A stretch of 64,000 nt of DNA from an uncultured bacterium (GTDB taxonomy: Bacteria; Hydrothermota; UBA3072): positions 49,245 to 113,244 of the forward strand of contig CAZSEX010000003.1 in NCBI GenBank assembly GCA_964606065.1, given 5' to 3'. The translations under genes were made by a program, and so were the position numbers. Numbering within the stretch: position 1 is the stretch's first letter; the number at the start of each line of letters is the position of its first letter. Below are positions 96-33,445 of the stretch, piece by piece. The notes under the pieces were generated by a model. That model worked only from the letters and a program-made list of their open reading frames with translations, was not told the DNA's origin and did not search any database.

Positions 96-486
96 AGTTT
101 TAGTGGCTGATGATGTCCCTTCTATTTTATATCTCTTTAAAGAATTTTTCAAACTCAAAGGTTTTGAGGTAGACACAGCGGATAACGGTTTTGAAGTTAG
201 CAAGAAACTCGGCAAAAACAACTATCATCTTTTAGTTCTTGATATTAAGATGGGAGGAAAACACGGATTGGAAGTTCTCCAGAACTTAATCGAGCGGGGT
301 CATAAACTTCCGGTAATTATTTGCACCGCGTATGAACACTTAAAAGAAGACGTAGAAATTATTGCTAAAGACAAATTAGACGTGGATTTCATAACCAAAC
401 CTCCGGATTTAGAACTTCTCTGGGAGAAAGTAGTTCGGTTGCTGAAAAAAAATGCAATTAGAGAAGAAGTGGGAAAAAATAACTGA
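88..486 (+). CDS. Single-domain response regulator (CheY-like receiver)
   Basis: MAKVLVADD...LLVLDIKMGG matches the receiver-domain acidic pocket and phospho-Asp context. SD aaaggagg lies 6 nt upstream of the ATG at 88. The track ORF 61-486 probably starts too early. Confidence 0.8.
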   Translation: MAKVLVADDVPSILYLFKEFFKLKGFEVDTADNGFEVSKKLGKNNYHLLVLDIKMGGKHGLEVLQNLIERGHKLPVIICTAYEHLKEDVEIIAKDKLDVDFITKPPDLELLWEKVVRLLKKNAIREEVGKNN

Positions 487-1951
487 AAGCGAGAATCTAA
501 ACGAACTTTTGAAAAGGATTCTCGATCTTTCTCAAGAAGTCCTTCAAAGTGAAGCCGCCACGTTATTTCTCGTGGATCATAATACCGGAGAATTAGTATT
601 TAAGATTGTAAAGGGTCCCGAAGCCGGTAAATTGCAGGGAAAAAGAATAAAAATCGGGGAAGGAATAGCCGGTAGAACCGCCATAGAAGGAAAGTCTTTT
701 GTTGTTAACAGGCCAAAGAGTTCCGGATACGCGGATCAATTTGATAAACAAACCGGTTTTAACACCGAATCTCTGCTTGCCGCCCCTCTTATTATAGACG
801 GAGAAACAATCGGAGTAATCGAGGTAATTAATAGCCGTGGTGGTAAATACAACGAAAGAAGTAAAGAAATAATAGAACAGCTTGCGGCTCAGGTTTCCTC
901 TGGACTCAAAATGACTCTTCTCAGTGAAAGACTTTCAAAATCCGAAGAGTTCCTAAATTCAATCATAAACTCTTTACCTGGAGGTATAATAATTTTAGAC
1001 GAAGAAGGAATCATAACAAAATCTAACCCGACAGCAGAAGAAATGCTTTCAATAAAAAACATTGAGGGAGAATATCTCGAGGCAATTTTACCTCACCGCG
1101 AAATATTTACAAATATAAAATCTATCGAAAACAGGGGAAGCTTCGAAGCTGTCATCCGAAAAAACGGAAAAGAAAATCATTTAAATTTCGAATTATCTAA
1201 AGCTAAAGAAATAAGTTCTTCCGGTATAGAAAAAGAATATTCGATCATTCAGATTAACGACATTACAGAAAGGGTAGAACTAAACAGGTTAAAATACTTG
1301 CAGGAAATAAACGCAAATTTTGTACTCGGTTTATCGCATCGTCTGAGAACGCCTCTTACCCCTATTCTCGGTTTATCGAGCCTTTTAAAAAACCGGGAGG
1401 ATCTTCCGGAAAATCTTAAAGAAACGGCAGAAACAATTTACGATTCGGCTATGGAAATGAAAGATATGGTAGAAAAACTTCTGGATATAGCTGAGATTGG
1501 CACGGAAAAAACAATCAAGACAGATGAAAAAATAAATTTTATCTCGGTCCTGGATTTAATTACTAAAAATTTCGTTAATTTTCACATAAAGGCTGATACC
1601 GAAAACAAGAATTTGTTCATCTATGGTAATTACAACTGGCTGGCTAAATCGCTCAGACAATTATTCGCCATCGGTTTAAAGAATGATAGCAAAAATTTAC
1701 GAGTTGAATTAGAAGAAAAAAAAGATAGTTTATATCTTAACCTTAAAGGTTCTAAATCTTTGATAGACGATTTTTCCGCTCTGGAAAACACGCCTATTCT
1801 TTCATTCGATAATCCCCTAACGGGAAATTCGGACATTAAATATTTAGATATTTCTCTTATCAGGTTAATTCTGAATAAACATAACGTTAAAATCACAGTA
1901 AAAGAAGACAAACTATTGCTTTCTTTAGGCTTCAAAAAAGCAAAATCATAA
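452..1951 (+). CDS. GAF-PAS-HisKA sensor protein with a degenerate C-terminal ATPase-like region
   Basis: GAF-like N-terminus, PAS-like middle (LPGGIIILDEEGIITKSNPTAEEML) and H-box LGLSHRLRTPLTPILGL. The C-terminus lacks clear G1 (DxGxG) and G2 (GxGLGL) boxes. Confidence 0.7.
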   Translation: MQLEKKWEKITESENLNELLKRILDLSQEVLQSEAATLFLVDHNTGELVFKIVKGPEAGKLQGKRIKIGEGIAGRTAIEGKSFVVNRPKSSGYADQFDKQTGFNTESLLAAPLIIDGETIGVIEVINSRGGKYNERSKEIIEQLAAQVSSGLKMTLLSERLSKSEEFLNSIINSLPGGIIILDEEGIITKSNPTAEEMLSIKNIEGEYLEAILPHREIFTNIKSIENRGSFEAVIRKNGKENHLNFELSKAKEISSSGIEKEYSIIQINDITERVELNRLKYLQEINANFVLGLSHRLRTPLTPILGLSSLLKNREDLPENLKETAETIYDSAMEMKDMVEKLLDIAEIGTEKTIKTDEKINFISVLDLITKNFVNFHIKADTENKNLFIYGNYNWLAKSLRQLFAIGLKNDSKNLRVELEEKKDSLYLNLKGSKSLIDDFSALENTPILSFDNPLTGNSDIKYLDISLIRLILNKHNVKITVKEDKLLLSLGFKKAKS

Positions 1952-1967: not shown

Positions 1968-3539
1968 TTAATAAAGAAAAGTACTCCCACCTATAAATTC
2001 TCTTAAAATAGAAGTTTGAGGTATCTCTTTCTCTGGAATATTCAGGAAATGGTCAAGAAAATTTAAAAGCCTGAGAGCTTCGCAATAATAAGGCGAACCA
2101 GTAGAAACACATCTCAAAGGTGTTTCCAGGAAAACTTTCAATACGGAAAGCTCATAAACAAGAGATGAATTAAACATAACATCTGCCCTTTCCTGATAAG
2201 GGAAAACAAACTGATCCTCACCCTCTTTAACTGATTCCCATTGTTTCAGAGTGTGTTCCGCATTATATCCCCTATACCTCGTATCTCTAAAAACCCTCCT
2301 CAAAAGCCGGAGGTCCCGGGTTGGTATTCTGTTAATTCTGTTAATATTCAACTGAGTAAGAGGTGAAACATATATTAGAAAAGTTTTTAGAGAAATGTTT
2401 TTCATTAATGCCGGATTGAAACAATGCAAACCCTCTATTATAAGTATATTATTTTCCTGTAAATCAAAGACCTCCTGACTTTTTTCTCTTTTACCCGTTT
2501 TAAAATTAAAATACTGCCTTTCCACTTTTTTCCCTTTGCTCAAATCATTTACATGTTTTCTAAACAGATCGATATCCAGAGCAGAAAAGGAATCGAAAAA
2601 ATGCGTCCCGTCTTTATAGTAAGGTGTTTTATCCCTTTCAAAAAAGTAGTCGTCGAGTGACATATAAACCGGTTCAATTCCGTGTACACGCAGGTGAATA
2701 CCAAGCCTCTTTGAAAAAGTGGTTTTACCCGAAGAAGAGGGTCCGGCTATCAAAACAGCCTTGATATTTTCCCCTTCTTTAAGTATTCTCTTACAAATAT
2801 CAGTTATCTTTTCGCTGTGAATAACCTCGGCTATCTTCAAAATGTCCGATATTTCGCTTCTAATTATATAATGGTTAAGCTGAGAGACATCCCAGATTTT
2901 CAAGATTTCCGCTTCTTTTCTTGCTTCTCTATAAGCATTAAACAGCTTTTCTCTCTTCTCGATTTTTCCTATACTGGAGGGGTCTTCTTTGGAAGGAAGA
3001 ATCAACAAAAACCCCCCTTTTACAGATTTCAAGTCGAAAGTGGAAAGGAATCCGGTGTTAGGAAGTAAAGGTCCGGCAAAGTAAGCGGAAAAACCATCTA
3101 TTTTATAAACAGGGATATAGGATGCCGCTAAATTTTTAAGAATATTTATATCATCTTCTCTTCCCGAAAGATAATGCATGGCTTCCAACTTCGGCAGCAT
3201 TACTTTTTCTATATTCTTGTTTTCTCTTATAAGAGCATTCACTTTTTTCTTGATTGTCCTTAAATTTAAAGGGCCCTTGAGGAATCTCCCGAAAATGGCA
3301 TTCCCGTATGAATGCTCTATTTTAATTGTAACTCCTTTTTCCTTGCAAACATAATCGAGTAAAAAAACAAGCGTTCTTTCGTAAGTTCTCATCCCTTCGG
3401 TATCCCCCAGATCGAGAAATTCGACCGAACTTCCTTCTGGTGCGCTGTTCTGAAGTGAAATATACTGATTATCTACTTTAGCTAATGTTACAGGAAACTG
3501 TAACTCGGGATATTCGTCAAGTATTTTTCGGCTCATCAA
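1968..3539 (-). CDS. Uridine kinase / phosphoribulokinase-family nucleoside kinase with N-terminal ThrRS/TGS-like extension
   Basis: P-loop AGPSSSGKTTFSKRLG, plus the PRK/UDK signatures DDYFF, ILIIEGLH and LRLLRRVFRDTRYRG. Its start overlaps the stop of the upstream GGDEF gene. Confidence 0.65.
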   Translation of the reverse strand: MMSRKILDEYPELQFPVTLAKVDNQYISLQNSAPEGSSVEFLDLGDTEGMRTYERTLVFLLDYVCKEKGVTIKIEHSYGNAIFGRFLKGPLNLRTIKKKVNALIRENKNIEKVMLPKLEAMHYLSGREDDINILKNLAASYIPVYKIDGFSAYFAGPLLPNTGFLSTFDLKSVKGGFLLILPSKEDPSSIGKIEKREKLFNAYREARKEAEILKIWDVSQLNHYIIRSEISDILKIAEVIHSEKITDICKRILKEGENIKAVLIAGPSSSGKTTFSKRLGIHLRVHGIEPVYMSLDDYFFERDKTPYYKDGTHFFDSFSALDIDLFRKHVNDLSKGKKVERQYFNFKTGKREKSQEVFDLQENNILIIEGLHCFNPALMKNISLKTFLIYVSPLTQLNINRINRIPTRDLRLLRRVFRDTRYRGYNAEHTLKQWESVKEGEDQFVFPYQERADVMFNSSLVYELSVLKVFLETPLRCVSTGSPYYCEALRLLNFLDHFLNIPEKEIPQTSILREFIGGSTFLY

Positions 3540-5088
3540 TCAAAGAGATTGCTTTTTCCACATTTATATACGCTATATTGTTTCTTCCTCTACCTTTTAC
3601 ATAATACATTGCCAGATCCGAAAGCCTCAGCAAATCATAGAAATTTCCGCTATCCATAGGATAGCAGGCTATACCAAAACTTGCCTTAATTTTAACTTTT
3701 ATTGTTTTTTTCTCATCTTTTATGCGGAATGTTTTTGTTGATATTGCATCTTTAAGTTCCTTTGTGAAATCGATTGCCTGTTTTAAATCCATCTTACGCA
3801 GAACTATAACGTACTCATCGCCACCGTAGCGGATTCCTACGTGTTGCCTGTTTTTTATCTTGCCTTGAATTTCTTTGCCCACGAGCCGCAACAACTTGCT
3901 TCCTATCAAGTGGTTGTAACTATCGTTAACATTTTTAAAATGATCCAGATCCATAAAAACCACGGCTCCTTTCCCCTCCTCTTCTTTCCATTTGTTAACA
4001 ATTGCAGGCAGGTATTCATTACAATAACGCGAGTTATACAAATCCGTAAGTTCGTCAGTAATGGTAGCCAGTCTTATTTTTTCATAAAGCCTGGCATTGT
4101 CGATAGCTATGCCAAGCTGGTAAGAAACCTCTTTGATTATTTTAGCCTCTTCTTTATTAAACGCGTATTTTTCAGGAGAACCTATAACCGTTACCCCGAT
4201 CAGTTTATCTCCCTTTTTGATTGGAATAACCATTTCGGACTTAAATTCTGCACTAAGCTCTTTAAATTTTTTACTTTTTTCCGTGTCCTGACAAATAACC
4301 ATTTCCTGCTCTTTCAACACTTCTCCAATCAGACCTTTACTCTTTAGAATTTTTTTCTCCGGCTCAACCTTTCCTTTTCCCGAAAACCCTTTTAACACCA
4401 CATAGGAACCTTCCTCGAGAGCTATTCCCACAAAATAGTAATCAAACGCTTTCTGAATTAACTCCGCACTCTTTTTCAAAAGCTTATTGAGATCAAGAAT
4501 AGAAGTAATTGTTTTGTTAATATCAAAAATAAGCGTTAATTGACCAACCTTAGATTTGAGATTTTGAACCAGATTAGCATTCTCAAGCGCGATAGCCGCA
4601 TGTTCAGCGTAATTGTTTACCAGATTCAAATCCTTTTCATTAAAAGGTTTCCCTCCTTTTTTATTTATAGCTTCTATTATACCCAATATCTTTCCCTTAC
4701 TGATTAAAGGGACAGAAAGAATGGTTCTGGTTACAAAACCCGTTTGCTTATCTATGTTCTGGAAAAATCTTTTATCTTCATAAGGATTGGTTACAATCGC
4801 AGGTTTTTTGTTTTTTACAGTCCAACCAACGACACCTTTATTGAGAGGCATCCTTTCCCCTTCTAATTTATCCTTCTTTTCTCCTATTACTTCTTTAAAA
4901 ACGAGCTCCTCTCTTTCCTTGTCCAATAAAAGCAAAGACCATGCTTCTGCATCAAGGAGACGGGAAACATTCTTCATTATCAGCTTAAGCACCTCATCGA
5001 TTTCGATATCAGGCGAATTAATCGCCTTCAGAATTTCTCCGAAGTCCTCGATTTCATTCTTCATCTTTTTCCTCAGGTACAACTTCAT
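3517..5088 (-). CDS. GAF-GAF-GGDEF diguanylate cyclase (GGDEY variant of the active-site motif)
   Basis: Two GAF-like regions followed by the GGDEF domain (VVFMDLDHFKNVND...RYGGDEYVIVL). It overlaps the upstream cyclase gene's 3' end. Confidence 0.8.
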   Translation of the reverse strand: MKLYLRKKMKNEIEDFGEILKAINSPDIEIDEVLKLIMKNVSRLLDAEAWSLLLLDKEREELVFKEVIGEKKDKLEGERMPLNKGVVGWTVKNKKPAIVTNPYEDKRFFQNIDKQTGFVTRTILSVPLISKGKILGIIEAINKKGGKPFNEKDLNLVNNYAEHAAIALENANLVQNLKSKVGQLTLIFDINKTITSILDLNKLLKKSAELIQKAFDYYFVGIALEEGSYVVLKGFSGKGKVEPEKKILKSKGLIGEVLKEQEMVICQDTEKSKKFKELSAEFKSEMVIPIKKGDKLIGVTVIGSPEKYAFNKEEAKIIKEVSYQLGIAIDNARLYEKIRLATITDELTDLYNSRYCNEYLPAIVNKWKEEEGKGAVVFMDLDHFKNVNDSYNHLIGSKLLRLVGKEIQGKIKNRQHVGIRYGGDEYVIVLRKMDLKQAIDFTKELKDAISTKTFRIKDEKKTIKVKIKASFGIACYPMDSGNFYDLLRLSDLAMYYVKGRGRNNIAYINVEKAISLIDEPKNT

Positions 5089-7570
5089 AAATTATTTTAA
5101 CTCTTCCTTTTTTAATCTCAAGTTCTCCTTCCTCATTAATAGCAAGACTCAAATCCTCAGGCATGTCGAATTTTAAAGCTTTTCTTTTATCCTGCTCATC
5201 TAAATTGTAAATACCAACGGGAGAAACACTAAAACCATCAAAGAAAAACGAACGGTCTTTATTTTCAGCTTTTAATATATAAAGAAGTTTATTAATAATT
5301 CCTTTTTCGGAGTCATCCTTTTCAAGTGGTTCTGTAAGCAAATAGTCATCCGAATTAAGTATTAAATTTATCAATGTATTATTGTCAATCAAGATAACCG
5401 AACGTTCAGGACTTCTCCCTGAAGAAAGCAACGCCGCTTCATCTACAAGTATCCCATTCAAATCAGGATCCCCAAAAGCATTAGGGGTAAAGATTAAATC
5501 CTTGCCGGGACTACCACTGGCAATTCCGATTCCAAGCCTAAACAACGACTTAAACTGAGGCGGCAACAAAGCGTAAGTTATTCCCTCGTGAAAGATTTCC
5601 TTTTCCGTTATTTCTCCAAACCATTCCCTGTATCTCACGTAATTTTCTTTAACGAATTTTTCGGCGGCTTTAACCATATTCAAAGCTGTTCTTATCGCCA
5701 TTTCGGCACTTTTCATGTGAGGTAATAGATTGAATTCGTCTTCAAGAGCCGTCGAATAGCGCACAATCGCACCCGATCTGGTCTTAGAAGTTTTGTAAAT
5801 ATTCCTGTAAAGTTTTTGAGAATTACTCCCAAACCATAGAATCCCTCCATCCCCGGTATCTTTCAATATAAAAGAAGAACCTTTTCTGGCAGCCTCAAAA
5901 ATACAGGATTGAAAAAGAGAAATAATAGACCTTTCTCTTTCGGCATCTCGCAATCTATGGGACATAAAAGTGGATCCTCTTATATCGTAAACAAGCGTGG
6001 CAACCAGAGAAGAAAATTTCTTCCGAAGAATCCTGGAAACCTTTTCTTTTAGCTCCATATCTTCTCTATCAATCTTCGGTTCAATCTTTCCCGCTTTGGA
6101 AAATCTGTAAAACTTCCCTCTCGGTAATAAATCCAACCCCACAAGGTGAATTATCCTGTCTCCGTTTATTCTCGATCTGGGGTTGTCGAAACCAACAGAA
6201 GGGGGCCATATTTCCACCATGTTACTAATAATATCTCGAACGTATATAACCTCAAGAATCTCATAAAAAACCATCTTGTAATTATATATTACTCTCTTGA
6301 TATCAGGGGAAAAAGATCTCTTTTGATCAGAGCCTAATTTAGAAAAAAGCTGATTGTCCTTCGATGTCTTTTCGGTCTTCCGCAAAAAACGAATAATAGC
6401 CCTTTCGGATGAAGGACTTATAATGGCTAAAAAAGGCTGGGCCTTCCAGAACTCCAACACAAGTTTTTCAATTTCCCATGAAGGGGCGGGGGGCAAAAAA
6501 GAAATCAAATCCTGCGGTTTAATACCCTGAAGAGCCCGGTTCTGGTCTATCTCATCTTTCAGGGCCGCACCGGAATCTTTAAGCTCTTGAACCATTCGAA
6601 GGTGCAATTTTAATGTTTCTTCAAGTTTAGTGATTTCTTCCTGAATCTTCGTGAGCGCCACAGATAAGTCCTGATTTTTAACATCTATTAAAGCCTGCAA
6701 TTTGTTAAGACTCTTTTGTAAAAATTTATTGGTTTCTTCCCGAACTTTCATGTCTTTTCCATCCAGACTTCTATCTCTTTCCACCAATTTCTTTTTTGCC
6801 TTCACCGCCTTCTGAGAAGCTATTTTAGCTAAAGTTTGCAAAACATTTTTAGAAGGAACAAAGAATTTTTCAAAAGGAAAATTTCTTAAAGATCGCATAT
6901 TGGTTATTTCAGAATTCTTGAAAAGAGAAATAATATCACTAGATTCTCTCTCTGTAAAATTTTCTATCAAAATATCGTGTATTTTCATAAAAACCGATGG
7001 CGTAAATCCATATCCGGCAAGAGAACGTTCAAAATCTACGAGGCTTAAATTTCGAACGGGAAACCCCGCAAAAAAGCATTCTTTTGTTATCAATTTCGTA
7101 AAAGGTTTTATTTTCTGCTCAGGTATCCCCTCCAAAAGGACATTGACAAGTTTTGTGCCAACCTTCTGAGCCTCACGAAAACTTCCGATTAATTCATTCG
7201 GATATAATTTGATCAATAAGGATAAAAGTATTACAAAAAAATGTTCACCTTTATCTAAAGCATTGAGAAATAAATCGCACAAAAATTTCTTGTCCTTTTT
7301 ATACAGCTTATCTTCCTTTATTCTGACAAATATGTCCCTGAGATAGGCAAGTTCTCCTTTTTCGATTTCAACAAATATTTTCACTCTGTGAGCGGCGACA
7401 AAATCCGAAAAGGTTGTTTTAATAGATCGGGGTTTGAAATACTGCGTTAAAAGTTTTTTATAGTATCTAAAGAGACTTTTCTCTCCAACGCTTTCTTCAA
7501 GAGTATCAAGAAGCTTGCTTTCGTACGTACTGGCAATTTCTAAATACGCCGGACTGAACTTTTCTTTCAT
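5054..7570 (-). CDS. 838-aa protein with C-terminal class III adenylate/guanylate-type nucleotidyl cyclase catalytic domain; large N-terminal region of unknown function with a coiled coil
   Basis: VYDIRGSTFM, ILKDTGDGGILWFG and FRLGIGIASGSPGKDLIFTPNAFGDPDLNGILVDEAALL match the CHD pattern (fxDIxGFT / KtIGDaym / RiGihxG...dvwGdxVNxAsR). The start ATG overlaps the pyrC stop (ATGA). Confidence 0.6.
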   Translation of the reverse strand: MKEKFSPAYLEIASTYESKLLDTLEESVGEKSLFRYYKKLLTQYFKPRSIKTTFSDFVAAHRVKIFVEIEKGELAYLRDIFVRIKEDKLYKKDKKFLCDLFLNALDKGEHFFVILLSLLIKLYPNELIGSFREAQKVGTKLVNVLLEGIPEQKIKPFTKLITKECFFAGFPVRNLSLVDFERSLAGYGFTPSVFMKIHDILIENFTERESSDIISLFKNSEITNMRSLRNFPFEKFFVPSKNVLQTLAKIASQKAVKAKKKLVERDRSLDGKDMKVREETNKFLQKSLNKLQALIDVKNQDLSVALTKIQEEITKLEETLKLHLRMVQELKDSGAALKDEIDQNRALQGIKPQDLISFLPPAPSWEIEKLVLEFWKAQPFLAIISPSSERAIIRFLRKTEKTSKDNQLFSKLGSDQKRSFSPDIKRVIYNYKMVFYEILEVIYVRDIISNMVEIWPPSVGFDNPRSRINGDRIIHLVGLDLLPRGKFYRFSKAGKIEPKIDREDMELKEKVSRILRKKFSSLVATLVYDIRGSTFMSHRLRDAERERSIISLFQSCIFEAARKGSSFILKDTGDGGILWFGSNSQKLYRNIYKTSKTRSGAIVRYSTALEDEFNLLPHMKSAEMAIRTALNMVKAAEKFVKENYVRYREWFGEITEKEIFHEGITYALLPPQFKSLFRLGIGIASGSPGKDLIFTPNAFGDPDLNGILVDEAALLSSGRSPERSVILIDNNTLINLILNSDDYLLTEPLEKDDSEKGIINKLLYILKAENKDRSFFFDGFSVSPVGIYNLDEQDKRKALKFDMPEDLSLAINEEGELEIKKGRVKIIYEVVPEEKDEE

Positions 7571-8850
7571 TTTTTCTTTTTCTTAAAATCACCGTTCTCA
7601 AAAACGGTTCGCCCGTCAACTATACAGTACTTAACTACTCCCTCCAATTTCCATCCCAGAAAAGGAGAGTTTTTCGATTTTGAAGCAAAAACGTCGGCGG
7701 CAACCTTCCAATTACTCTTTAGATCTACAATCGTAAAATCCGCTATTGCTCCTTCTTTTATCTCTCCAAACGGAAGATTAAATATCCTTGCGGGCGAAGA
7801 TGTCAAAACCTTAATTAATACGTTGAGAGAAATTTTACCCTTCTTGACCAATTCCGTGTACAATACCGCGAAAGAAGTTTCCAGCCCCGTAACACCAAAA
7901 GCCGCCTCTGAAAACTCGATATCTTTTTTGTAATCCGGATGCGGAGCATGATCGGTTGCTACGATTTCTATTAAACCATCTTTTATCGCTCTTTGCAAAA
8001 CTTCAACATCATACATGGTTCTTAAAGGAGGTTTCATCTTCTTGTTTGAATCAAAATCCTTAATCAATTCGTCGCTCAAAAGTAAATGGTGAGGTGTAAC
8101 CTCTGAAGTTACTCTATCGTTTTTCCATTGTTTAATCAATTTAACCGAATCCGCAGCGGAAACATGCGCAAGGTGAACCCTTCCCCGGGTAAACTTAGAC
8201 AACAAAATATCTCTTGCCACAACTGTAGATTCAGATACATCGGGTATGCCTTTGAATCCTAATCCTGCAGAAACAGAACCTTCATGCATCTGACCTTTAT
8301 TGGAAAGAGAAATATCCTCAGGATGGTCAATTATAGGGACATCAAATAACTTAGAATATTCCAAAGCATTACGCATTATTCCTGAATTTCTCACACAATC
8401 TCCGTCATCACTGAAAGCAACACAACCTGCCTGATAAAGATGCGACATCTCCGAAAGTTCCTTACCCTCTCTTTCTTTTGTAATGGTCCCTATGGGGAAA
8501 ACCCTGCAAAGCCCTACTTCCTCGCTCTTTTCCTTTATAAAACGGGCGACGCCTTCATTATCAATCGGAGGATTCGTATTAGGCATAACACAAACAGATG
8601 TATAACCTCCTTTAACCGCAGCTTTAGAACCTGATTCTATAGTCTCCGCATCTTCCGCGCCAGGCTCACGAAAATGAGAGTGTACATCAACTAAACCAGG
8701 AAAGAGATATAATCCTTCCCCGTCAATTTCCTTTCTGGCTGAAGATCCTGTCCCCTTCACAACTTTCCCTTTATCAACCAACAGAGTTCCAACCTCGTCG
8801 ATACCGCTTAAAGGATCAAAAAGGTGTATATTTTTAATTTTTATGTCCAT
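7567..8850 (-). CDS. pyrC: Dihydroorotase
   Basis: DVHSHFREPG metal-binding signature and an amidohydrolase fold sequence. It is adjacent to pyrB. Confidence 0.9.
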   Translation of the reverse strand: MDIKIKNIHLFDPLSGIDEVGTLLVDKGKVVKGTGSSARKEIDGEGLYLFPGLVDVHSHFREPGAEDAETIESGSKAAVKGGYTSVCVMPNTNPPIDNEGVARFIKEKSEEVGLCRVFPIGTITKEREGKELSEMSHLYQAGCVAFSDDGDCVRNSGIMRNALEYSKLFDVPIIDHPEDISLSNKGQMHEGSVSAGLGFKGIPDVSESTVVARDILLSKFTRGRVHLAHVSAADSVKLIKQWKNDRVTSEVTPHHLLLSDELIKDFDSNKKMKPPLRTMYDVEVLQRAIKDGLIEIVATDHAPHPDYKKDIEFSEAAFGVTGLETSFAVLYTELVKKGKISLNVLIKVLTSSPARIFNLPFGEIKEGAIADFTIVDLKSNWKVAADVFASKSKNSPFLGWKLEGVVKYCIVDGRTVFENGDFKKKKK

Positions 8851-9787
8851 TTAATTTCCTCTGGGATAACAGATAAAGAACACTCATTCTCACGGCGACT
8901 CCCGTAGCCACCTGACTTAACACGAGAGAATATTCGGAATCCGCAATCCTCGACTCGATTTCGATTCCTCTGTTAATCGGTCCTGGATGCATTATAACAA
9001 CTTCTTTAGCTGCAAATTTTTTTAGCTTTTCATATGTAAGAGAGTAATCCTTTATATATTCACGGAGAGAAGGGAACAAACTTTCCCCCTGTCTTTCTTT
9101 TTGAATCCTTAAGATATAGAGAACTTCTCTCCCGGGTAGGGTTTTTTCCAGGCTAAACTCAAACTCGACTCCAAAAGATTCCATCCAAAGAGGCAAAAGA
9201 GTGGGCGGAGCACAGACAGTAATACGGGCTCCCATTTTATTAAGCCCTAAAACCAGAGAACGGGCAACCCTGGAATGCTTAATGTCCCCAATAATAGCTA
9301 TATTCAAATCTTTAAACACGGAAAATCTTTTCTTTAAAGTCATAATATCTATCAATGCCTGAGTTGGATGCTCGTGACATCCATCTCCGGCATTTATTAT
9401 AGAAGCTGTTAATTTCTTAGACAGAAAATGAGGGCTGCCAGGCGCGGAATGCCTTATGACTATTACATCTACTTCCATCGCCTGAATATTTTTCGCGGTA
9501 TCCAACAATGTTTCCCCTTTTAAAACCGAAGAGGATGCAGCTGAAAAGTTGATGGAATCAGCTGAGAGTCGTTTCTCGGCAAGAGCAAAAGAGTTTAATG
9601 TTCTCGTACTTGGTTCGAAGAAAAGGTTGGCCACTGTAATACCCCTAAGTGTAGGAGCTTTTTTAATCGGTCGTTTCAGGATTTCTTCCATATATTCGGC
9701 TGTTGTTATGATTTCTTCTATTTCTTCGTTCGACAGCCCCTGAATTCCAAGTAAATCTTTCCTATCCATTTTTATTTGAAACCTCAA
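8834..9787 (-). CDS. pyrB: Aspartate carbamoyltransferase catalytic subunit
   Basis: STRTLNSFALAEKRL, HPTQALIDIMT and HPGP motifs. The true start may be the internal MDRKDLLGIQ Met. Confidence 0.9.
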   Translation of the reverse strand: MRFQIKMDRKDLLGIQGLSNEEIEEIITTAEYMEEILKRPIKKAPTLRGITVANLFFEPSTRTLNSFALAEKRLSADSINFSAASSSVLKGETLLDTAKNIQAMEVDVIVIRHSAPGSPHFLSKKLTASIINAGDGCHEHPTQALIDIMTLKKRFSVFKDLNIAIIGDIKHSRVARSLVLGLNKMGARITVCAPPTLLPLWMESFGVEFEFSLEKTLPGREVLYILRIQKERQGESLFPSLREYIKDYSLTYEKLKKFAAKEVVIMHPGPINRGIEIESRIADSEYSLVLSQVATGVAVRMSVLYLLSQRKLNGHKN

Positions 9788-10325
9788 TCACTCTGACCAA
9801 ATCCTCTTTATCCGTTTCCTGAAAAAGAACCTGAATTTCTTCCCCTTCCTTTAAATCCACCGGAATACCGGTATAATCAGGGATTATTGGAAGCTCTCTT
9901 CCCTCTCTTTTAACCATAACGGCAAGCTTTACCCTCAAAGGTCTTCCATAATCTATTATCTCGTCAAGAGCAGCTCTGATTGTTCTACCGGTATAAATGA
10001 CATCGTCTACCAACAGAACTTCTTTCCCTTCTATCGAGCAGGGGAAATACGTGGAACCTATAATAGGTTTGGGTCCATATAACGTCAGATCATCTCTATA
10101 TAATGTTATATCCAGAACTCCTACATTAATTTTCCACGAAGTGGACTTCTTTAAAATACGCGCCAATCTCTTGGCGAGAATATCCCCTCTTTTTCTAATA
10201 CCTATTATACACAGAAAATCGATATCAGGATCATCTTTTGCAATATCTGTTGCCAGTCTGACAACAGTTTTCCGCATCTCTTCTTTGTTTAATAAGACTC
10301 TTTTTTCTTTGAATTTAATATCCAT
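9762..10325 (-). CDS. pyrR: Bifunctional pyrimidine operon regulator / uracil phosphoribosyltransferase PyrR
   Basis: PRTase motif LLVDDVIYTGRTIRAALD and overall collinearity with Bacillus PyrR. The start is chosen at MDIKFKEKRVLL, because the track ORF starts at an upstream GTG. Confidence 0.85.
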   Translation of the reverse strand: MDIKFKEKRVLLNKEEMRKTVVRLATDIAKDDPDIDFLCIIGIRKRGDILAKRLARILKKSTSWKINVGVLDITLYRDDLTLYGPKPIIGSTYFPCSIEGKEVLLVDDVIYTGRTIRAALDEIIDYGRPLRVKLAVMVKREGRELPIIPDYTGIPVDLKEGEEIQVLFQETDKEDLVRVIEVSNKNG

Positions 10326-10456
10326 ACGAGGGATATTCCATAGATACGAGGCAGGAAACACATGCCATTTTCCCTTTCATATAGCCTCCTTCTCTATTAA
10401 TTTATTAAAAATAAATGAATAGTCAAGGTTTCTTTTGAATTTGTGTTTTTTTAAAC

Positions 10457-24916: not shown

Positions 24917-27900
24917 TCACCCCCTCATAAGAGGTCTTATTCTTTTGTATTTCTCTGTTGCTTCCCGTAACATTGTAGCCACATAAACTTTTTTCTTTAT
25001 GGGGTTCATATTCGTCTTTGAAAGGAGACTTAAAGAAAGCTCTGTTTTTCCGCTTTTAAAAGCAAGCAAAGCTCTTTTTTCTAAAAAATCTTCTCTTTGC
25101 TTTAACCGTGAAAGACGCTGGTATGCCTCCCAATAATTCCCCAGTTCGGCTTCCAGATCGCTTAAAAGGACCTCTTTTTTCTCATCGTTTACTTTTTCGA
25201 TTTCTTTTAATGCCTCATCGAAATCTTTTAGTTTAATGTATAAAAAGAATCTTTCTTCAGGATCATCTGTAATCTCAAGCCTATCAAGCAGTATCCTCTT
25301 TTTCATTTTCTGTATCTCCTTTAAGCCAACTTTAATATTTTTACCGAGAAACCAGGAAAGAACTTTTTCTTTCTCTTCTTGCTTTTTAACTTTTTCGAGA
25401 TAAAAACGGGCTTTTTCCTTATCTCCGGCAACAAAATAAAGATAAGCTCCTTCCTTAACAATTTCGTCATTATCTGGATACTTATCGAGCAACTGCTCGT
25501 AAAAAGGCATTTGTTCTTTTATGTCCATGTTTCTTATATATCTGATTGCCTCATCCAAATTTGAAAGACTGAGATTGATTTTAACCAGCAAAGCAACCAT
25601 TTCTTCGTCATCTGGATATATAATCGCTTTCAACTTCTCGGCAACTTCGGGAAAATCATCAAGCAATTTTTCCATTTCTATTCGACTCTTCTGTTTATCC
25701 TCTACTTGATAGCGAAGATTGGCTATTGAAAGCCTGATAGGCATGGGGATTTTTTCTTGAAACAGCTGTTCAAGTTGGTTCAACAAATATTTCCCTTTTT
25801 CTTCCGAGCCATCGAAGAACTTGTCTATTACTCCAACAAGAGGCGCGTTACGTTCTTCGTTCGCATAAATTTTCAAAAGACCTCCAGTCAGTTCCTTTGT
25901 CAGTTCCACTTTTGGTATTAAAGCTCCTATTTCCTCGTTGATTTTATTTCGTCTTTTTTCATTTGTCCAATAAGCTTCAATAAAATACTCCAAAGCCTGT
26001 AGAGCATGACCTAAATCTTTCTCGATAGAAGCCTTTAAAAAAACAATGCTTTTTTCGACTTCAGGATTTTCGAATTTTTCAAAAGCCTCTATTGCCGAAC
26101 TCTTTAATCTGGGATCGAAACGTATGCTTTTTTCTATTTCCTCGATGCCTGTTAAATCTCCAAGTCGAAGCTTAACTTTACCGTAAAAAATTCTGAGTCC
26201 GGCATGGATGGGAGCGATATCTATGAGTTTTTCACATTCTTCAAGCATTACTTCGCCCATTGTTTCCTTTTGCTCAAGCGCCTCTCCCAGGCACCTGACC
26301 GCTTTATCTATATTCCCCGCTTCTCTATATAATCTATAAAGAGTCATGACAGTTTCATATTCCGCGTTACCTTCAGCTCTTATCTCTTCAAGCAACTCTA
26401 TCGCTCTTTCAGCGAGAGAATTATCTAATCCTACAGCCCTTCTGATAAGTCCTGCCGCGTTCGACAAATTACCGATTTTCGAATTCGCTTTAGCCATAGA
26501 AATCATTAACTCTGGCTGTTCTTCTAATTCTAAAGATTCCAGAACCTGCGACCCCCACTTGATGGCTTCTTCATAATAATTGTTTTGAATTAAAATCCTG
26601 GTAAGCACTCGAGAAATAGCCTCGTTGTCTTCTCTTTTTTTTAATTCATTAATAAGAAAAGTTGTTATTTCTCCAACATAGTCAGGAAACTCCCGCGCGG
26701 CATTCTCTACTTCCCTGCAACCCTTTTTAAAATCACCCTTATAAAAGTATAAGGAGGCGATAAGCTTTCGCATCTTAGGCTCATCCCGATAACTCTGTAA
26801 ATAGGTTATAATAAATCTGAACCTTTCCGTATCCTCATTTATAGCTTCTTTGTAACTGCTCTCCGCTTTATCGAATTCGTTCGACAATCGGTATAACTCA
26901 GCTAAAGCGAATGGATACGTAAAAGGAGGAAAATCCTGTCTGTCAAGGTTCTTATAAAATTTTAAAAATTGTTCGGTAAATTCCGGCTTTGCTTTTACTC
27001 TCTTATCAAATTCCGTAAGCATCACAGGTATAGTATCTTTATTCTCGGAAATTATCAAATTGACTTTTTCCGCAACTTCTTCCGGTCCTTCTGGAATTTG
27101 AAGCATTAAAGAAATAATTTCTCCCTCGGTACTAACCGGATTTTCCTGTTTAAATTTCTGAAGTTCTTCTTTTACTTGCTCTGTTCTTTCCGGATCCAGG
27201 GATAGTTCTTTATAAATTTGGAGCGCTGCCTCGGTTTCTCCTTCTCTTGAAAGCAATCTCGCTTTCAAAAGCAAAACCGAAGAAGATAAGTCTTTACCCT
27301 CAAATATTTGATTTATCCTTTCAAGTATTACGTTCGACGCCGAAGGAGATTGTTCAAACGTTCCTTCTAAAATATGCACTACCTCCTCTTCCCAACCAAG
27401 GGTACCATAAATGCTTGCCATGTCAAGAAAACTATCCAAACCCTGAGAAAATTTCCCTCCAAGTTCTTTTACTCTTTTACCTATTTCTTCGTCCGATTCT
27501 ATTGAAACAGCCGCGAGAAATTCCTTTAACCCTTCCGCGTTTCTATCTTTTCGAATATAAGCTTCGGCCAATTGTTTATGAATTATCGGATTGTCGGGGT
27601 CTTTCTTGACCATTTTCTGATATTTTTTGATGGCATCATCTATTTCAAAAGCTCCTATAAGATCAAGCGCCTTTTCCTCTTTTCCTGACTCAATTAGCAA
27701 TTCACTTAAATAATCAATAATCTCCTTTGATTTTTTCTTACAGGGAGATAAAATAGAAATTACTTTCTCCTGGAGATCAGGTTTTGCATTCACGGATTCA
27801 CGCAACTTGGCAACGCCTTGGGTATAATTTTTGTTTTTAAGCAAAAATTCGCCCAACCCTAATTTTAAATACGCATCTCCGTAATTTTCTCTCTCTGCTC

Positions 27901-28513
27901 TTTTTAATTCTTTTGTAATGTTTTCGATTTCCTCCGGTTTCTTTTCAAATATAATTCTAAATATCCTTAAAGTCTCTTCGCTTTCTCTCCCTTCCTTCAT
28001 GATCGCATATAAATAAAAATGCGTAAAGTCTCTGGAGCTAAACTCCGATTTATTCGCAAGGATATTTTTGACAACCTCTCCCTCTCTCTGGATAAAAGAA
28101 TCCTTACTTTCATCGCTCATGTCCCTGAAAAAATCATAAACCCCGTCAAAGTCGGCCTTTTCCACCCATTTTTCCATTAAGTACTCAGCTAAACGGTCCG
28201 GCTTGCCTCTACCGTAAAACAAATCCTCTACCTCTCCAATAACCTTGCTTTTCGCTTTTGCGGAAAGCGTTGCGCCTTTCTCTGCCCAGATAATTACTTC
28301 GTTGAGTTTGTCTATAGAATGGTATAAATGCATAATTTCAAGAATAAGAGGGAGATCTGACTCATCGTTTCTTAAAGCGCCCTGCAATATTTTAATAGCT
28401 TTAAGAGAATCCCCTTTTGATGCAACCCTACGGGCTTTATCAATTAGATTGGACTGATCGCCAAAAGTAAACATAACCAACAAAGAATATAACAAAAATA
28501 AAAAGTAAGTCAA
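24917..28513 (-). CDS. Very large (1198 aa) TPR-repeat protein with N-terminal signal/TM segment
   Basis: Numerous degenerate 34-aa TPR-like units and a hydrophobic N-terminus MTYFLFLLYSLLVMFTFG. Confidence 0.6.
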   Translation of the reverse strand: MTYFLFLLYSLLVMFTFGDQSNLIDKARRVASKGDSLKAIKILQGALRNDESDLPLILEIMHLYHSIDKLNEVIIWAEKGATLSAKAKSKVIGEVEDLFYGRGKPDRLAEYLMEKWVEKADFDGVYDFFRDMSDESKDSFIQREGEVVKNILANKSEFSSRDFTHFYLYAIMKEGRESEETLRIFRIIFEKKPEEIENITKELKRAERENYGDAYLKLGLGEFLLKNKNYTQGVAKLRESVNAKPDLQEKVISILSPCKKKSKEIIDYLSELLIESGKEEKALDLIGAFEIDDAIKKYQKMVKKDPDNPIIHKQLAEAYIRKDRNAEGLKEFLAAVSIESDEEIGKRVKELGGKFSQGLDSFLDMASIYGTLGWEEEVVHILEGTFEQSPSASNVILERINQIFEGKDLSSSVLLLKARLLSREGETEAALQIYKELSLDPERTEQVKEELQKFKQENPVSTEGEIISLMLQIPEGPEEVAEKVNLIISENKDTIPVMLTEFDKRVKAKPEFTEQFLKFYKNLDRQDFPPFTYPFALAELYRLSNEFDKAESSYKEAINEDTERFRFIITYLQSYRDEPKMRKLIASLYFYKGDFKKGCREVENAAREFPDYVGEITTFLINELKKREDNEAISRVLTRILIQNNYYEEAIKWGSQVLESLELEEQPELMISMAKANSKIGNLSNAAGLIRRAVGLDNSLAERAIELLEEIRAEGNAEYETVMTLYRLYREAGNIDKAVRCLGEALEQKETMGEVMLEECEKLIDIAPIHAGLRIFYGKVKLRLGDLTGIEEIEKSIRFDPRLKSSAIEAFEKFENPEVEKSIVFLKASIEKDLGHALQALEYFIEAYWTNEKRRNKINEEIGALIPKVELTKELTGGLLKIYANEERNAPLVGVIDKFFDGSEEKGKYLLNQLEQLFQEKIPMPIRLSIANLRYQVEDKQKSRIEMEKLLDDFPEVAEKLKAIIYPDDEEMVALLVKINLSLSNLDEAIRYIRNMDIKEQMPFYEQLLDKYPDNDEIVKEGAYLYFVAGDKEKARFYLEKVKKQEEKEKVLSWFLGKNIKVGLKEIQKMKKRILLDRLEITDDPEERFFLYIKLKDFDEALKEIEKVNDEKKEVLLSDLEAELGNYWEAYQRLSRLKQREDFLEKRALLAFKSGKTELSLSLLSKTNMNPIKKKVYVATMLREATEKYKRIRPLMRG

Positions 28514-28537
28514 GACTTAAACCAAAACGAATTATTA

Positions 28538-30436
28538 TCAATATTCAGCTATTTCTGTACGGTTCTTTCCTCTTTTTTTTGCGCTATACAAACCTCTGTC
28601 AGCCGCAGCTATGAGATCTTTTTTAGTATGTGCATGCGATCCAAACTCGGCAACGCCTATTGATACCGTAATTTTAAACTTAATATCCTCCGGAGAAACA
28701 AATACTTTGTTTTCGACCGCGACACGCAGATTTTCCGCCAGGTTACATCCATCTACACCATTAGTACTTGGTAATATTATGGCAAATTCCTCTCCTCCGT
28801 ACCTTGCGAGAATATCTGAAGACCTGATTCTATCTTTCATTAACATTCCCACTTCGCGTAAAATCATATCGCCATTTTGATGTCCAAACTGATCGTTAAT
28901 CGTTTTAAAATTGTCGAGATCTATCATTAGCAAAGAAACGGGCTCGTTTTTCCGCGCGGCTTCGGCGAGTTTATTGTCCAGCATCTCCTGAAAAAAGCGG
29001 TGATTGTAGGTTTCTGTCAATCCATCCATAATAGCCTTTTTCCTTTCGTGATCATACAAAACAGCTTTTTCTACAGAAGAAGCTGCGATATCCGTAATCA
29101 AATTTAAAATCATTAAATCATTATTCCTATCAAACCAATTCTGATTATTAGAAAGAAGCAGTATTCCACCCTTTATGTCTCCACGGAAAGGCGAAAACAA
29201 TAAAGACCTCGCCTCAAAATTCCGCTCTCCGGGAAACAAAATAGGTCTTTTTGTTTCCTTAAAAAGATCCATTTTACAAAGCGCGATATTTTTTTCAAGC
29301 GCTAAAGCGATTATACTCTTTTTAAGCTCCTGGTAATATCTTCTTCCATCTTCTTCGGTCAAATGATACTCGTTTCCCTCTTTTAGCAAGAAAATTGCCC
29401 ACACTTCTTTAAAACTACTTGTTACTGTTTCAAAAATGCTTTTTCTCACTTCTTCCAATCTAATCTCACCCGCCACTTTTTCTGTGAGACTTAAAAGAGA
29501 ACGAAATCTGAAAGCTTCAAGCATTGAAACACTTATATATTTACAAAGAGCAAACAGAGTGGATAGGCTCTGGACTATACTTGTTAAAATCTCTCTATCT
29601 CTTTCATCAAAAGCTTTTTTCCCCTGTCTATCCACCACCACAATACCTATCATATCATCATCAATCCCAATTGAACTGGCCATAAAACATCCGATATGTT
29701 CTTCCTTTTGATAGTATCCCAAGTTCATAGACGAATCATTAAAGTCATTATTTACCAGAATGCCGGAGTTTTTTAGAAACCAGGAAAGAGGTCCTTTGTT
29801 TATAGCAACTATTGGTTTTATCTCTCCTTCGCTTTTCGCTATTCTTACATGAAATTCATACTTTTCCTGTTTAACCAAGAGAACAACACTGAAAGGTTTA
29901 AACAACCGGGCAATGATATCCACGCTCGCCGATAAAGAATCGTATATTTTATTCGAAATAGTAGATGGCAGTTCTTTTTTTCGAGAAAAACTTTCTCTGA
30001 TATCCAGATTTTGCCCATCTTCATTCTCTTTCTCCATAGAAACGCTCTTTTTGTTGCTTTCTTCCGGTACAACAAAATACAGCAAAGCAATTGAACCATA
30101 AAATAGCAAATAAGGCAATACATAGAACTCCTCTAATAAAGAAAATAACGGCAATATAAGCCACCAGAATTTAATCTTTAAACCTCTTTTTCGTAGTATA
30201 AAAATAACCGGTAGATACGAAGCAAAAAGCGGAGAAGAAAGTCCTCCTGCTAATTGGACAAGAAAAGCTACCGCTGTAAGAGCAAAATAAAATGAAATAT
30301 TCTCTTTCTCTATTATAAAAAAAAATAAAATTGTTAGCATTGTTACCGGTACCCAGATAGATATACTCACAGGGGAAAAAACAAGAAACAAATATCCCAG
30401 AAACAAAAACAACGAAAGCCACCTGTATAAATTCAT
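28538..30436 (-). CDS. Membrane-anchored GAF-GGDEF diguanylate cyclase
   Basis: About 5 N-terminal TM helices, a GAF-like middle and a canonical GGDEF domain (RYGGEEFAIIL) with RxxD-like context. Confidence 0.8.
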   Translation of the reverse strand: MNLYRWLSLFLFLGYLFLVFSPVSISIWVPVTMLTILFFFIIEKENISFYFALTAVAFLVQLAGGLSSPLFASYLPVIFILRKRGLKIKFWWLILPLFSLLEEFYVLPYLLFYGSIALLYFVVPEESNKKSVSMEKENEDGQNLDIRESFSRKKELPSTISNKIYDSLSASVDIIARLFKPFSVVLLVKQEKYEFHVRIAKSEGEIKPIVAINKGPLSWFLKNSGILVNNDFNDSSMNLGYYQKEEHIGCFMASSIGIDDDMIGIVVVDRQGKKAFDERDREILTSIVQSLSTLFALCKYISVSMLEAFRFRSLLSLTEKVAGEIRLEEVRKSIFETVTSSFKEVWAIFLLKEGNEYHLTEEDGRRYYQELKKSIIALALEKNIALCKMDLFKETKRPILFPGERNFEARSLLFSPFRGDIKGGILLLSNNQNWFDRNNDLMILNLITDIAASSVEKAVLYDHERKKAIMDGLTETYNHRFFQEMLDNKLAEAARKNEPVSLLMIDLDNFKTINDQFGHQNGDMILREVGMLMKDRIRSSDILARYGGEEFAIILPSTNGVDGCNLAENLRVAVENKVFVSPEDIKFKITVSIGVAEFGSHAHTKKDLIAAADRGLYSAKKRGKNRTEIAEY

Positions 30437-30563
30437 ATAAAATTATAACTCCTCATACCTATATTGTCAAGGATTACAGAACTTTTTAATTTTTTTTTTA
30501 AAAATCTATCTTCACCCTCTTGACATAATATTAATTTTGACAAATAATAAAAAATAGATTATC
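30437..30563. promoter_or_regulatory. Candidate oriC part / dnaA promoter region at the gene-strand switch
   Basis: A very AT-rich 127-nt spacer (tttttaattttttttttaaaaatc) with TTGACA elements, lying between the last minus-strand gene and dnaA. Confidence 0.4.
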
Positions 30564-31883: not shown

Positions 31884-32051
31884 TGAATAAACGATGGTTT
31901 ATAAACATTTTATCCACATACTATTTTTGAAAATTTATGATTAAAACAAGAATAATAAAAAGGCTTTTTAAAAATATCCACTTATCCACAGGAACTACAA
32001 AAACTACAATAATGATATATAACTATTATTAACTGTTAAAAAGGAGGAATA
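31884..32051. promoter_or_regulatory. dnaA-dnaN intergenic region with DnaA boxes (candidate oriC)
   Basis: Perfect TTATCCACA at 31910-31918 and 31982-31990, plus an adjacent partial box atatccac at 31974-31981, in an AT-rich 168-nt spacer. Confidence 0.55.
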
Positions 32052-33131: not shown

Positions 33132-33132
33132 A

Positions 33133-33324
33133 TTAGATAACTTTTTTAACTTTATTGGTTTTTAAACATTTTGAACAAACATACACTTTTTTAATCTTAT
33201 CGTTGATTAATATTTTTATACTATGTAAGTTTGGTTTTTGTTTCTTTTTGGTTTTACGTTTAGAATGACTTACCTTATTGCCAAAAGTAGTTGTCTTTCC
33301 ACAAACAAAACATTTTTTTCCCAT
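33133..33324 (-). CDS. rpmB: 50S ribosomal protein L28
   Basis: MGKKCFVCGKTTTFGNKVSHSKRKTKKKQKPNLH matches L28. The start is taken at the third Met of the track ORF. Confidence 0.8.
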   Translation of the reverse strand: MGKKCFVCGKTTTFGNKVSHSKRKTKKKQKPNLHSIKILINDKIKKVYVCSKCLKTNKVKKVI

Positions 33325-33445
33325 TAACACATCTCCTTTTTTTTTAATATAATAGAAACAATATGTTTTTTGTCAATACCATGTTTGTCTATTGACTTTT
33401 TCTTTTTTTACTTTATACTAAATATATTAAAAAAAAGGAGGTAAC

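Follow-up and report, generated by a model that had tools for sequence, protein, structure and literature searches.

A divergent class III cyclase homolog with a fixed metal site but no transition-state arginine, encoded next to a GAF-GGDEF protein in candidate phyla

In many class III nucleotide cyclases a sensor module is joined to the cyclase domain by a coiled coil, and enzymes of the GTP type carry Glu/Cys or Glu/Ala as the pair of residues that specifies the base. The seven canonical catalytic residues of the class have been listed, and Lys/Asp is the ATP-type base-specifying pair (PMC6592433). Lcd1 of Leptospira is a diguanylate cyclase activated by cyclic AMP (cAMP) (PMC8846402), and its GAF domain is PDB entry 5W10 (PMC11800159). 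Here we analyze gene X, which lies in a 64,000-nucleotide (nt) stretch of DNA from an uncultured bacterium of the Hydrothermota lineage UBA3072 (assembly GCA_964606065.1, contig CAZSEX010000003.1, positions 49,245 to 113,244; called the window below, and all coordinates are its own). The window is chromosomal and also encodes dnaA, ffh, glyA, nrdD, and mutS2. Gene X encodes an 838-amino-acid (aa) protein whose C-terminal domain, judging from profile alignments and a predicted fold, is homologous to class III cyclases, and its 3′ end overlaps a gene for a GAF-GAF-GGDEF protein.

Gene X occupies 5054..7570 on the minus strand (ATG at 7568-7570, TGA at 5054-5056), and the plus strand of 5054-7570 is full of stops. 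A preliminary description of the window, made from its letters alone, had proposed an 838-aa cytoplasmic protein here with no mention of the strand. The open reading frame is real, and its homologs in other genomes indicate that the gene is under selection; the close homologs number 27, with E values down to 0 and identities of 53-100%, plus one at 29%. The motifs quoted in that description are all present: VYDIRGST at residues 527-534, KDTGDGG at 570-576, and NAFGDPDLNGILVDEAALL at 697-715. A further motif, written there as RIGIxxG, is also in place, and its actual letters are RLGIGIASG (residues 678-686). The product is soluble, and the cytoplasmic location proposed for it is plausible: we found no signal peptide and no convincing membrane segment, and the top hydrophobic 19-residue window scores only 1.64 (Kyte-Doolittle), contains charged residues, and falls within what is predicted to be a helical bundle. 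We rejected a membrane location.

Family databases do not place the protein. PF00211, the search proposed in the preliminary description, gave no match to X at E ≤ 1 or to 13 family members at E ≤ 10, an NCBIfam search of X returned no match, and none of 27 X homologs has a precomputed Pfam domain. Such Pfam and NCBIfam matches as were obtained with X and the 13 members together, for example, DFF-C and ATG17, were dismissed as coiled-coil noise. A PDB search with the single X sequence found one cyclase only, Ma1120, at an E value of ~2, which is unusable by itself. From an exhaustive HMMER search we then drew alignment A2, which holds the C-terminal 340 residues of 35 sequences. The A2 profile, searched against PDB sequences, placed P. 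aeruginosa CyaB (3R5G) first (E = 4.3e-6), with five more class III cyclases below it. We compared A2 with a canonical profile of 121 domains made up of 119 bacterial PF00211 domains, collected with the CHASE2-cyclase of locus L024 as the seed, together with the C1 domain of adenylyl cyclase 5 (AC5-C1) and the C2 domain of adenylyl cyclase 2 (AC2-C2), the last two sequences having been checked against the PDB before use. A 68-residue CyaB fragment used as a seed for homolog searching gave short fragments only. In hhalign, A2 and the canonical profile aligned over 155 columns, from beta1 to alpha5, with a probability of 95.8% and an E value of 7.1e-9. Against the single sequences of AC5-C1 and AC2-C2, the family profile reached a probability of about 2%, in the same register as the profile-profile alignment.

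The predicted fold agrees with this assignment. An AlphaFold2 model of residues 500-838, built on A2, reached a predicted local distance difference test score (pLDDT) of 86.4 and a predicted TM-score of 0.88, and the cyclase-type palm fold (a beta-alpha-beta-beta-alpha-beta core) is present in it. Foldseek returned 142 matches to this model in the PDB at E ≤ 0.001. The best 50 of the 142 are all catalytic domains of class III adenylyl or guanylyl cyclases at a probability of 1.00, including CyaC, CyaB, Cya2, Ma1120, AC5-C1, soluble guanylyl cyclase, and Rv1900c, and the target-normalized TM-scores against isolated catalytic domains are mostly 0.6-0.73. Taken with the profile matches, the model indicates that the C-terminal domain of X is homologous to class III cyclases and too divergent for Pfam. 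This domain covers residues 500-740 (5351..6073, minus strand), with a lead-in helix at 502-519 followed by the elements beta1 to alpha5. We also considered a GGDEF domain and rejected it: hhalign gave a probability of 0.3% against a profile built from about 70 of the GGDEF partner proteins described below, PF00990 did not match, and the motif is KDTGDGG instead of GGDEF.

Residues of the active site were tabulated in 119 family sequences, from the window and 84 loci, which are about 33-45% identical to the window protein across clades. The register was concordant between three independent comparisons, namely the HMMER alignment with CyaB, the hhalign alignments with AC5-C1 and AC2-C2, and the profile-profile alignment. 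Both Asp residues that had been taken for metal ligands in the preliminary description are correct: Asp529 on beta1 (5984..5986, minus strand, as for all residues in this paragraph) aligns with D396 of AC5 C1, Asp574 in the beta2-beta3 turn (5849..5851) aligns with D440 of AC5 C1, and both are invariant. The specificity residues, which that description had been unable to read, can be assigned from the alignment. They are Lys570 at the adenine-specifying Lys position (5861..5863; K938 of AC2 C2) and Asp703 at the adenine-specifying Asp position (5462..5464; D1018 of AC2 C2), again invariant and of the ATP type. The full set of residues invariant in the 119 sequences is Y528, D529, R531, G532, K570, D574, G575, G576, G680, N697, D703, and G706.

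In contrast to these positions, the catalytic Asn and Arg are not conserved. The transition-state/ribose Asn position in helix alpha4 (N1025 of AC2 C2) holds Asp710 in the window protein (5441..5443, minus strand) and varies across the 119 sequences (R 35, N 27, A 21, D 16, S 16, G 3, and H 1). The transition-state Arg position (R1029 of AC2 C2) holds Leu714 (5429..5431, minus strand) and is hydrophobic in 119 of 119 (L 70, F 29, I 12, V 5, Y 2, and M 1), never basic. Arg678 (5537..5539, minus strand) may correspond to the P-gamma-binding Arg (R484 of AC5 C1); 82 sequences have R at this position, 35 have Q, and 2 have K, Gln being the residue of the X1 paralogs introduced below. It lies in the RLGIG motif, two residues upstream of the invariant G680, and it is opposite G680 that hhalign sets the canonical P-gamma Arg (RxGxHxG, at the start of beta4). 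From this alignment, the family has fixed the two-metal site and the ATP-type Lys/Asp pair and has universally lost the canonical transition-state Arg. Because the metal and Lys/Asp residues are frozen across such divergence, metal-nucleotide chemistry appears to have been retained, rather than the domain having decayed; the missing transition-state Arg and Asn, in turn, suggest altered or slow catalysis or a noncatalytic nucleotide sensor.

The claim of a cyclase homology domain in X is therefore upheld in part. Kinship with class III cyclases stands on profile, hhalign, and fold, and membership of the canonical family does not stand. The preliminary description had regarded the lack of a significant PF00211 match, or of the catalytic positions, as contradicting its assignment, and we found PF00211 to be silent and the Asn and Arg positions not to be conserved. 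For these reasons we regard X, as far as alignment can tell, as a relative of class III cyclases and not a canonical member. As a separate observation, one cluster representative (P0052, row 27 of A2) has a degraded metal site, with YSCRGVD... and ETDEGG in place of YDIRGS... and DTGDGG, and may truly have lost its activity.

The best sequence-profile and fold matches of X are the class IIIb-like CyaB (3R5G) and Spirulina CyaC (1WC0/1WC1). X shares with them the DIRG of beta1, the K..GD of beta2-3, both metal Asp residues, the specificity Lys, and the lead-in helix. X differs from them in having no PF00211 match, in carrying Leu, Phe, or Ile for the transition-state Arg and Asp for the Asn, and in two inserts of ~37 and ~34 residues and a C-terminal extension of ~100 residues. 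The partner residue of the base-specifying pair is Asp in X (class IIIa-like), whereas the canonical profile used here has Thr. The first insert, residues 583-619 between beta3 and alpha3 (5714..5824, minus strand), is modeled as a helix and a beta-hairpin and has no counterpart in canonical cyclase domains. The second, residues 644-677 between alpha3 and beta4 (5540..5641, minus strand), carries the pattern YRxWF...TYALLPPxFKSLF and is the most conserved stretch of X, with a mean identity of 59%; the corresponding values are 49% over the domain and about 20% over the N terminus. The extension, residues 741-838 (5057..5350, minus strand), is a confidently modeled alpha/beta element, ~26% conserved.

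The region in front of the cyclase domain is of a different kind. Residues 1-499 are predicted to be all-helical, with 0 invariant columns across 24 diverse members. They comprise an N-terminal region at 1-240 (6851..7570, minus strand; ~20% identity across the family), a long helical hairpin or coiled coil at 241-347 (6530..6850, minus strand; helices 241-295 and 302-347), and a helical linker at 348-499 (6074..6529, minus strand), whose conserved patches IWPP (454-457) and FYR (487-489) sit immediately before the cyclase domain. The coiled coil placed at about residues 250-330 in the preliminary description corresponds to this hairpin. Its statement that the N-terminal region resembles nothing recognizable also agrees with our searches, in which the N-terminal ~500 residues had no match in Pfam, NCBIfam, PDB sequences, or PDB folds. 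When 24 full-length members were combined into a profile, its PDB sequence matches over residues 240-460 were coiled-coil proteins only; the sequence matches of the hairpin, such as vimentin and tektin, are likewise only of the coiled-coil type. The structure prediction that had been suggested for this part was of little use: an AlphaFold model of full-length X from a 13-sequence alignment was of low confidence (pLDDT 55), and Foldseek with it returned nothing at E ≤ 0.001, so that no N-terminal assignment was possible. The module, about 500 residues in length, has no relation to MASE2, CHASE2, or any other known sensor. Its position and variability would fit a lineage-specific sensor or adaptor acting through the coiled coil.

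The gene overlapping the 3′ end of X encodes the GAF-GAF-GGDEF partner (3517-5088, minus strand). Its start codon is at 5088 or, more likely, at 5067, after GAGG. The best PDB match of the first GAF domain (GAF-A, partner residues ~16-175) is the Lcd1 GAF domain 5W10 (E = 8.7e-25), aligned end to end, and the next matches are CyaB2 and then the GAF domains of the phosphodiesterases PDE5/6/10/2. The GAF domains of CyaB2 and of PDE5/6/10/2 bind cyclic nucleotides. The GGDEF domain of the window partner matches PF00990 at an E value of 4.5e-32, and about 70 partners conserve an N-K...F...D motif, the metal-site motifs DxD..FK..ND of the GGDEF domain, and a GGDE[YF] motif. By these criteria the partner joins a cyclic-nucleotide-type GAF domain to a GGDEF domain with an intact set of catalytic motifs. 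In nearly every locus (~70 partners, L001-L084) the active-site motif has the unusual reading RYGGDEY, not GGDEF. An RxxD I-site, sought by eye five residues upstream of GGDEY in the window partner, was not evident. The partner thus resembles Lcd1 of Leptospira interrogans in its GAF-GGDEF logic and in the end-to-end alignment of GAF-A (PMC8846402, PMC11800159), and the window partner differs from it in having two GAF domains and a GGDEY motif. An Lcd1 gene adjoining the gene for its cyclase is not reported in the literature that we examined.

We surveyed the gene architecture at 80 species loci. A GAF-GGDEF gene lies directly downstream of X in 66-67 of the 80, a near-obligate neighbor that the preliminary description had passed over. 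The commonest arrangement is X1-X2-GAF-GGDEF, with two X paralogs in tandem (30/80), followed by X-GAF-GGDEF (17/80), pyrRBC-X-GAF-GGDEF-PRK (16/80, plus 3 cut at contig ends), pyrRBC-X without a GGDEF gene (9/80), and other arrangements (5/80). Pairing of X with GAF-GGDEF holds down to 29% identity with the window X, though the remaining flanking genes differ, and the two genes overlap by 1-35 nt across loci. In 47 of the 80 loci no pyrimidine genes lie beside X. A canonical CHASE2-PF00211 class III cyclase is encoded in one WOR-3 genome (L024, 2-1876, minus strand), ~6 kb upstream of its pyrRBC-X-GGDEF string.

In the window, six minus-strand genes overlap end to end in the order pyrR (9762-10361), pyrB (8834-9787), pyrC (7567-8850), X, the GAF-GAF-GGDEF gene, and a uridine-kinase/PRK-like gene (1968-3539), the last of the string; the successive overlaps are 26, 17, 4, 14-35, and 23 nt. 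The stop codon of pyrC overlaps the ATG of X (ATGA), and the start of the partner gene overlaps the 3′ end of X. Translation of the partner is probably coupled to that of X. The position of the pair inside a pyrR-pyrB-pyrC-X-GGDEF-udk-like string suggests that its expression is probably tied to pyrimidine metabolism in the clade of the window. The udk-like protein, of 523 aa, is of the uridine-kinase/PRK type in its C-terminal half (85 bits, against an NCBIfam udk cutoff of 180), its N-terminal ~250 residues match no family, and its gene is conserved at the end of the pyrRBC-X-GGDEF string.

The tandem paralogs stand in front of GAF-GGDEF in 30 loci, with X1 first in all of them; these include L028, L032, L036-L038, L040, L041, and L045-L047, and many are in WOR-3/Stahlbacteria genomes. 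X1 is ~810-880 aa and X2 ~755-815 aa in length, and their cyclase domains are 33% identical. The two carry complementary substitutions, Q678/E701/R710/K723 in X1 and R678/D701/(A/S)710/R723 in X2. A pseudo-heterodimeric cyclase with one better-equipped site would be expected to show such a pattern, and from it we infer an X1-X2 heterodimer. The fold of the X model is that of the mammalian adenylyl cyclase C1-C2 and soluble guanylyl cyclase alpha-beta domains (1AZS, 3UVJ), in which one competent and one degenerate site parallel the substitutions of X1 and X2 at 678 and 710. Unlike C1 and C2, which split these residues between domains, X1 and X2 each keep both metal Asp residues and the Lys/Asp pair. 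The organism of the window has a single X copy, which presumably forms a homodimer. The lead-in helix, the coiled coil, and the complementary tandem paralogs of relatives would be indirectly in line with a head-to-tail dimer whose active sites lie at the interface.

We give an even chance to the reading, based on the residues, the predicted fold, and the gene linkage, in which X is an ATP-utilizing, noncanonical cyclase whose product, in the simplest case cAMP, is read by the GAF domain of the partner diguanylate cyclase. The N-terminal module, all-helical and variable, would be the presumed sensor and pass its signal through the coiled coil. Since X keeps D529/D574 and K570/D703, the most likely role of its cyclase domain is to bind Mg/Mn-ATP, at what would be a dimer interface, and to form cAMP from it. 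Catalysis would use a noncanonical set of residues, and with no transition-state Arg and, in this clade, Asp in place of the Asn, intrinsic turnover may be low or dependent on the partner. The cAMP would be sensed by the Lcd1-like, cyclic-nucleotide-type GAF domain encoded by the presumably cotranscribed partner gene, so that X and the partner would form a hard-wired two-gene relay from cAMP to cyclic di-GMP (c-di-GMP).

Several points weigh against such a relay. In characterized class III enzymes, loss of the transition-state Arg and Asn strongly lowers activity (Linder and Schultz 2003, as cited in PMC6592433); the Arg is missing in every member of this family, and the Asn is Asp in the clade of the window. 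The equivalence of the P-gamma Arg, with R678 or the aligned column G680 as candidates, is ambiguous in the alignment, and PF00211 is silent throughout. The ligand specificity of the partner GAF domain is unreadable from sequence. Nine loci have pyrRBC-X with no adjoining GGDEF gene, so that a diguanylate cyclase is not an obligate neighbor, and at least one X-bearing genome has the canonical CHASE2-class III cyclase noted above, which could be a supplier of cAMP.

The residues missing from X would also suit a pseudocyclase or nucleotide sensor that binds Mg-ATP or another nucleotide without turnover and regulates the diguanylate cyclase by protein contact, sensing ATP, energy state, or a signal, with the insert at 644-677 as the candidate interface. 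We think this unlikely, though plausible enough to be taken seriously. It accounts for an Arg missing in 119 of 119 sequences, a variable Asn, and an uncertain P-gamma Arg, as well as for conservation that peaks in a family-specific insert and not in a catalytic motif; tight overlapping gene pairs are typical of subunits of one complex, and degenerate nucleotide sites are known in pseudo-heterodimeric adenylyl cyclases and soluble guanylyl cyclase (PMC6592433). Against it, the metal Asp residues and the Lys/Asp pair are invariant across deep divergence, which would be unusual for a noncatalytic domain, and the metal site is degraded in just 1 of about 53 cluster representatives. Moreover, a cyclic-nucleotide-type GAF domain in the partner would then have no local source of ligand, and X is kept without an adjoining diguanylate cyclase in nine lineages. 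We rate as distinctly improbable the idea that X is a cyclase or nucleotidyl transferase with a product other than cAMP (cUMP, cCMP, cGMP, or a linear or unusual nucleotide), in which case the changes at 710 and 714 and the two inserts would reflect a different chemistry or substrate. The placement of X between pyrR-pyrB-pyrC and a udk-like gene (16 loci and the 3 cut at contig ends), its position after pyrRBC without GGDEF in 9 further loci, and the remodeled catalytic helix alpha4 would fit, and the GAF subfamily binds cAMP or cGMP with a selectivity that is unpredictable here. The invariant Lys/Asp base-recognition pair is nevertheless an ATP signature (PMC6592433), most lineages (47/80 loci) have no pyrimidine genes by X, and the pyrimidine linkage could be mere coexpression. 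A pyrimidine-type cyclase was among the options left in the preliminary description. The Pycsar cyclase PycC shares with X a class III-type cyclase fold, and the pyrimidine gene context of X is suggestive; X differs in being an 838-residue, conserved core-genome gene product with an ATP-type Lys/Asp pair and no adjacent effector gene. A PADLOC scan of X and the two downstream genes gave no match, the Pycsar cyclase models included, and with no effector gene nearby and a conserved housekeeping operon as the setting, we rejected membership of Pycsar or another defense system.

Adjacency might also carry no signaling meaning, with X an independent sensor, the GAF-GGDEF protein answering to cAMP from a canonical cyclase or to another ligand, and the two genes doing no more than sharing a transcript. 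The canonical CHASE2-PF00211 cyclase in at least one X-bearing genome and the nine loci with no GGDEF neighbor would be explained in this way. Overlapping coding ends, however, are kept in 66-67 of 80 species and at phylum-level divergence (WOR-3, TA06, Stahlbacteria, Cloacimonadota, Edwardsbacteria, and UBP2) while the other flanks change, and we find this explanation very doubtful. As the longest shot among the readings considered, X relatives would be active without the canonical Arg and Asn, a relocated residue (e.g., R710 in X1) or the family-specific inserts replacing them. The cotranslated GAF-diguanylate cyclase would have their product as its dedicated ligand, and in view of the recurrent pyrR-pyrBC...udk setting this product might be a pyrimidine cyclic nucleotide instead of cAMP. 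The pair would then constitute a housekeeping, nondefense relay from pyrimidine-nucleotide status to c-di-GMP in WOR-3, TA06, and Cloacimonadota.

Other features of the window were noted in passing. An Rfam scan of the window found no family, including no PyrR-binding leader upstream of pyrR. The pyrR leader (10362-10430, minus strand) contains AAUAGAGAAGGAGGCU, which is loosely like the PyrR loop consensus and doubles as a ribosome-binding site, together with a promoter-like TTGACT-16-TAAATT at 10426-10399. Within the operon, counts of promoter and terminator patterns were not above those in shuffled sequence. A GAF-PAS-HisKA gene (452-1951, plus strand), in which no HATPase_c domain was detected, is convergent to the operon, and the same gene adjoins the operon in the close relatives L007, L012, and L018. 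A second GGDEF protein, of 632 aa and with no Pfam match in its N-terminal 460 residues, is encoded directly upstream of the gene for a 1198-aa TPR-repeat protein (both within 24917-30436, minus strand). The dnaA gene (30564-31883) lies beside the lowest-GC stretch of the window (0.30-0.32, within 30000-34000), and GC skew switches sign, negative to positive, at about 30-32 kb; from these features, the region at 30000-34000 is probably the chromosomal replication origin.

The X family is rare. The exhaustive HMMER search found it as 53 clusters at 50% identity among 1.84 billion representative proteins, and relatives occur in 148 of 185,579 GTDB species genomes, in genomes named WOR-3, TA06, Stahlbacteria, Cloacimonadota, Edwardsbacteria, and UBP2. 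The nearest relatives of the window protein come from WOR-3 metagenome-assembled genomes, whose C-terminal domains are 88-90% identical to it. Two homologs had already been annotated as "class 3 adenylate cyclase" by the JGI pipeline and are hypothetical proteins in other sources, so that the cyclase resemblance is faintly on record. Our literature search found no description of the family, its residue pattern, its inserts, its tandem paralogs, or its coupling to an Lcd1-type diguanylate cyclase.

X thus represents a cyclase-homology family that is invisible to Pfam and restricted to poorly studied candidate phyla. It amounts to a natural experiment in class III chemistry, in which the metal and base residues are frozen and the transition-state Arg is gone everywhere. 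Activity of X would call for a revision of the accepted seven-residue catalytic set, and inactivity would make the family a widespread pseudocyclase regulator. Together with the Lcd1-like diguanylate cyclase, X offers a testable two-gene model of cross talk between cAMP and c-di-GMP, and its recurrent placement in pyrimidine operons may point to a connection of c-di-GMP signaling with nucleotide supply. We regard it as a well-defined, tractable lead and not as a new principle.

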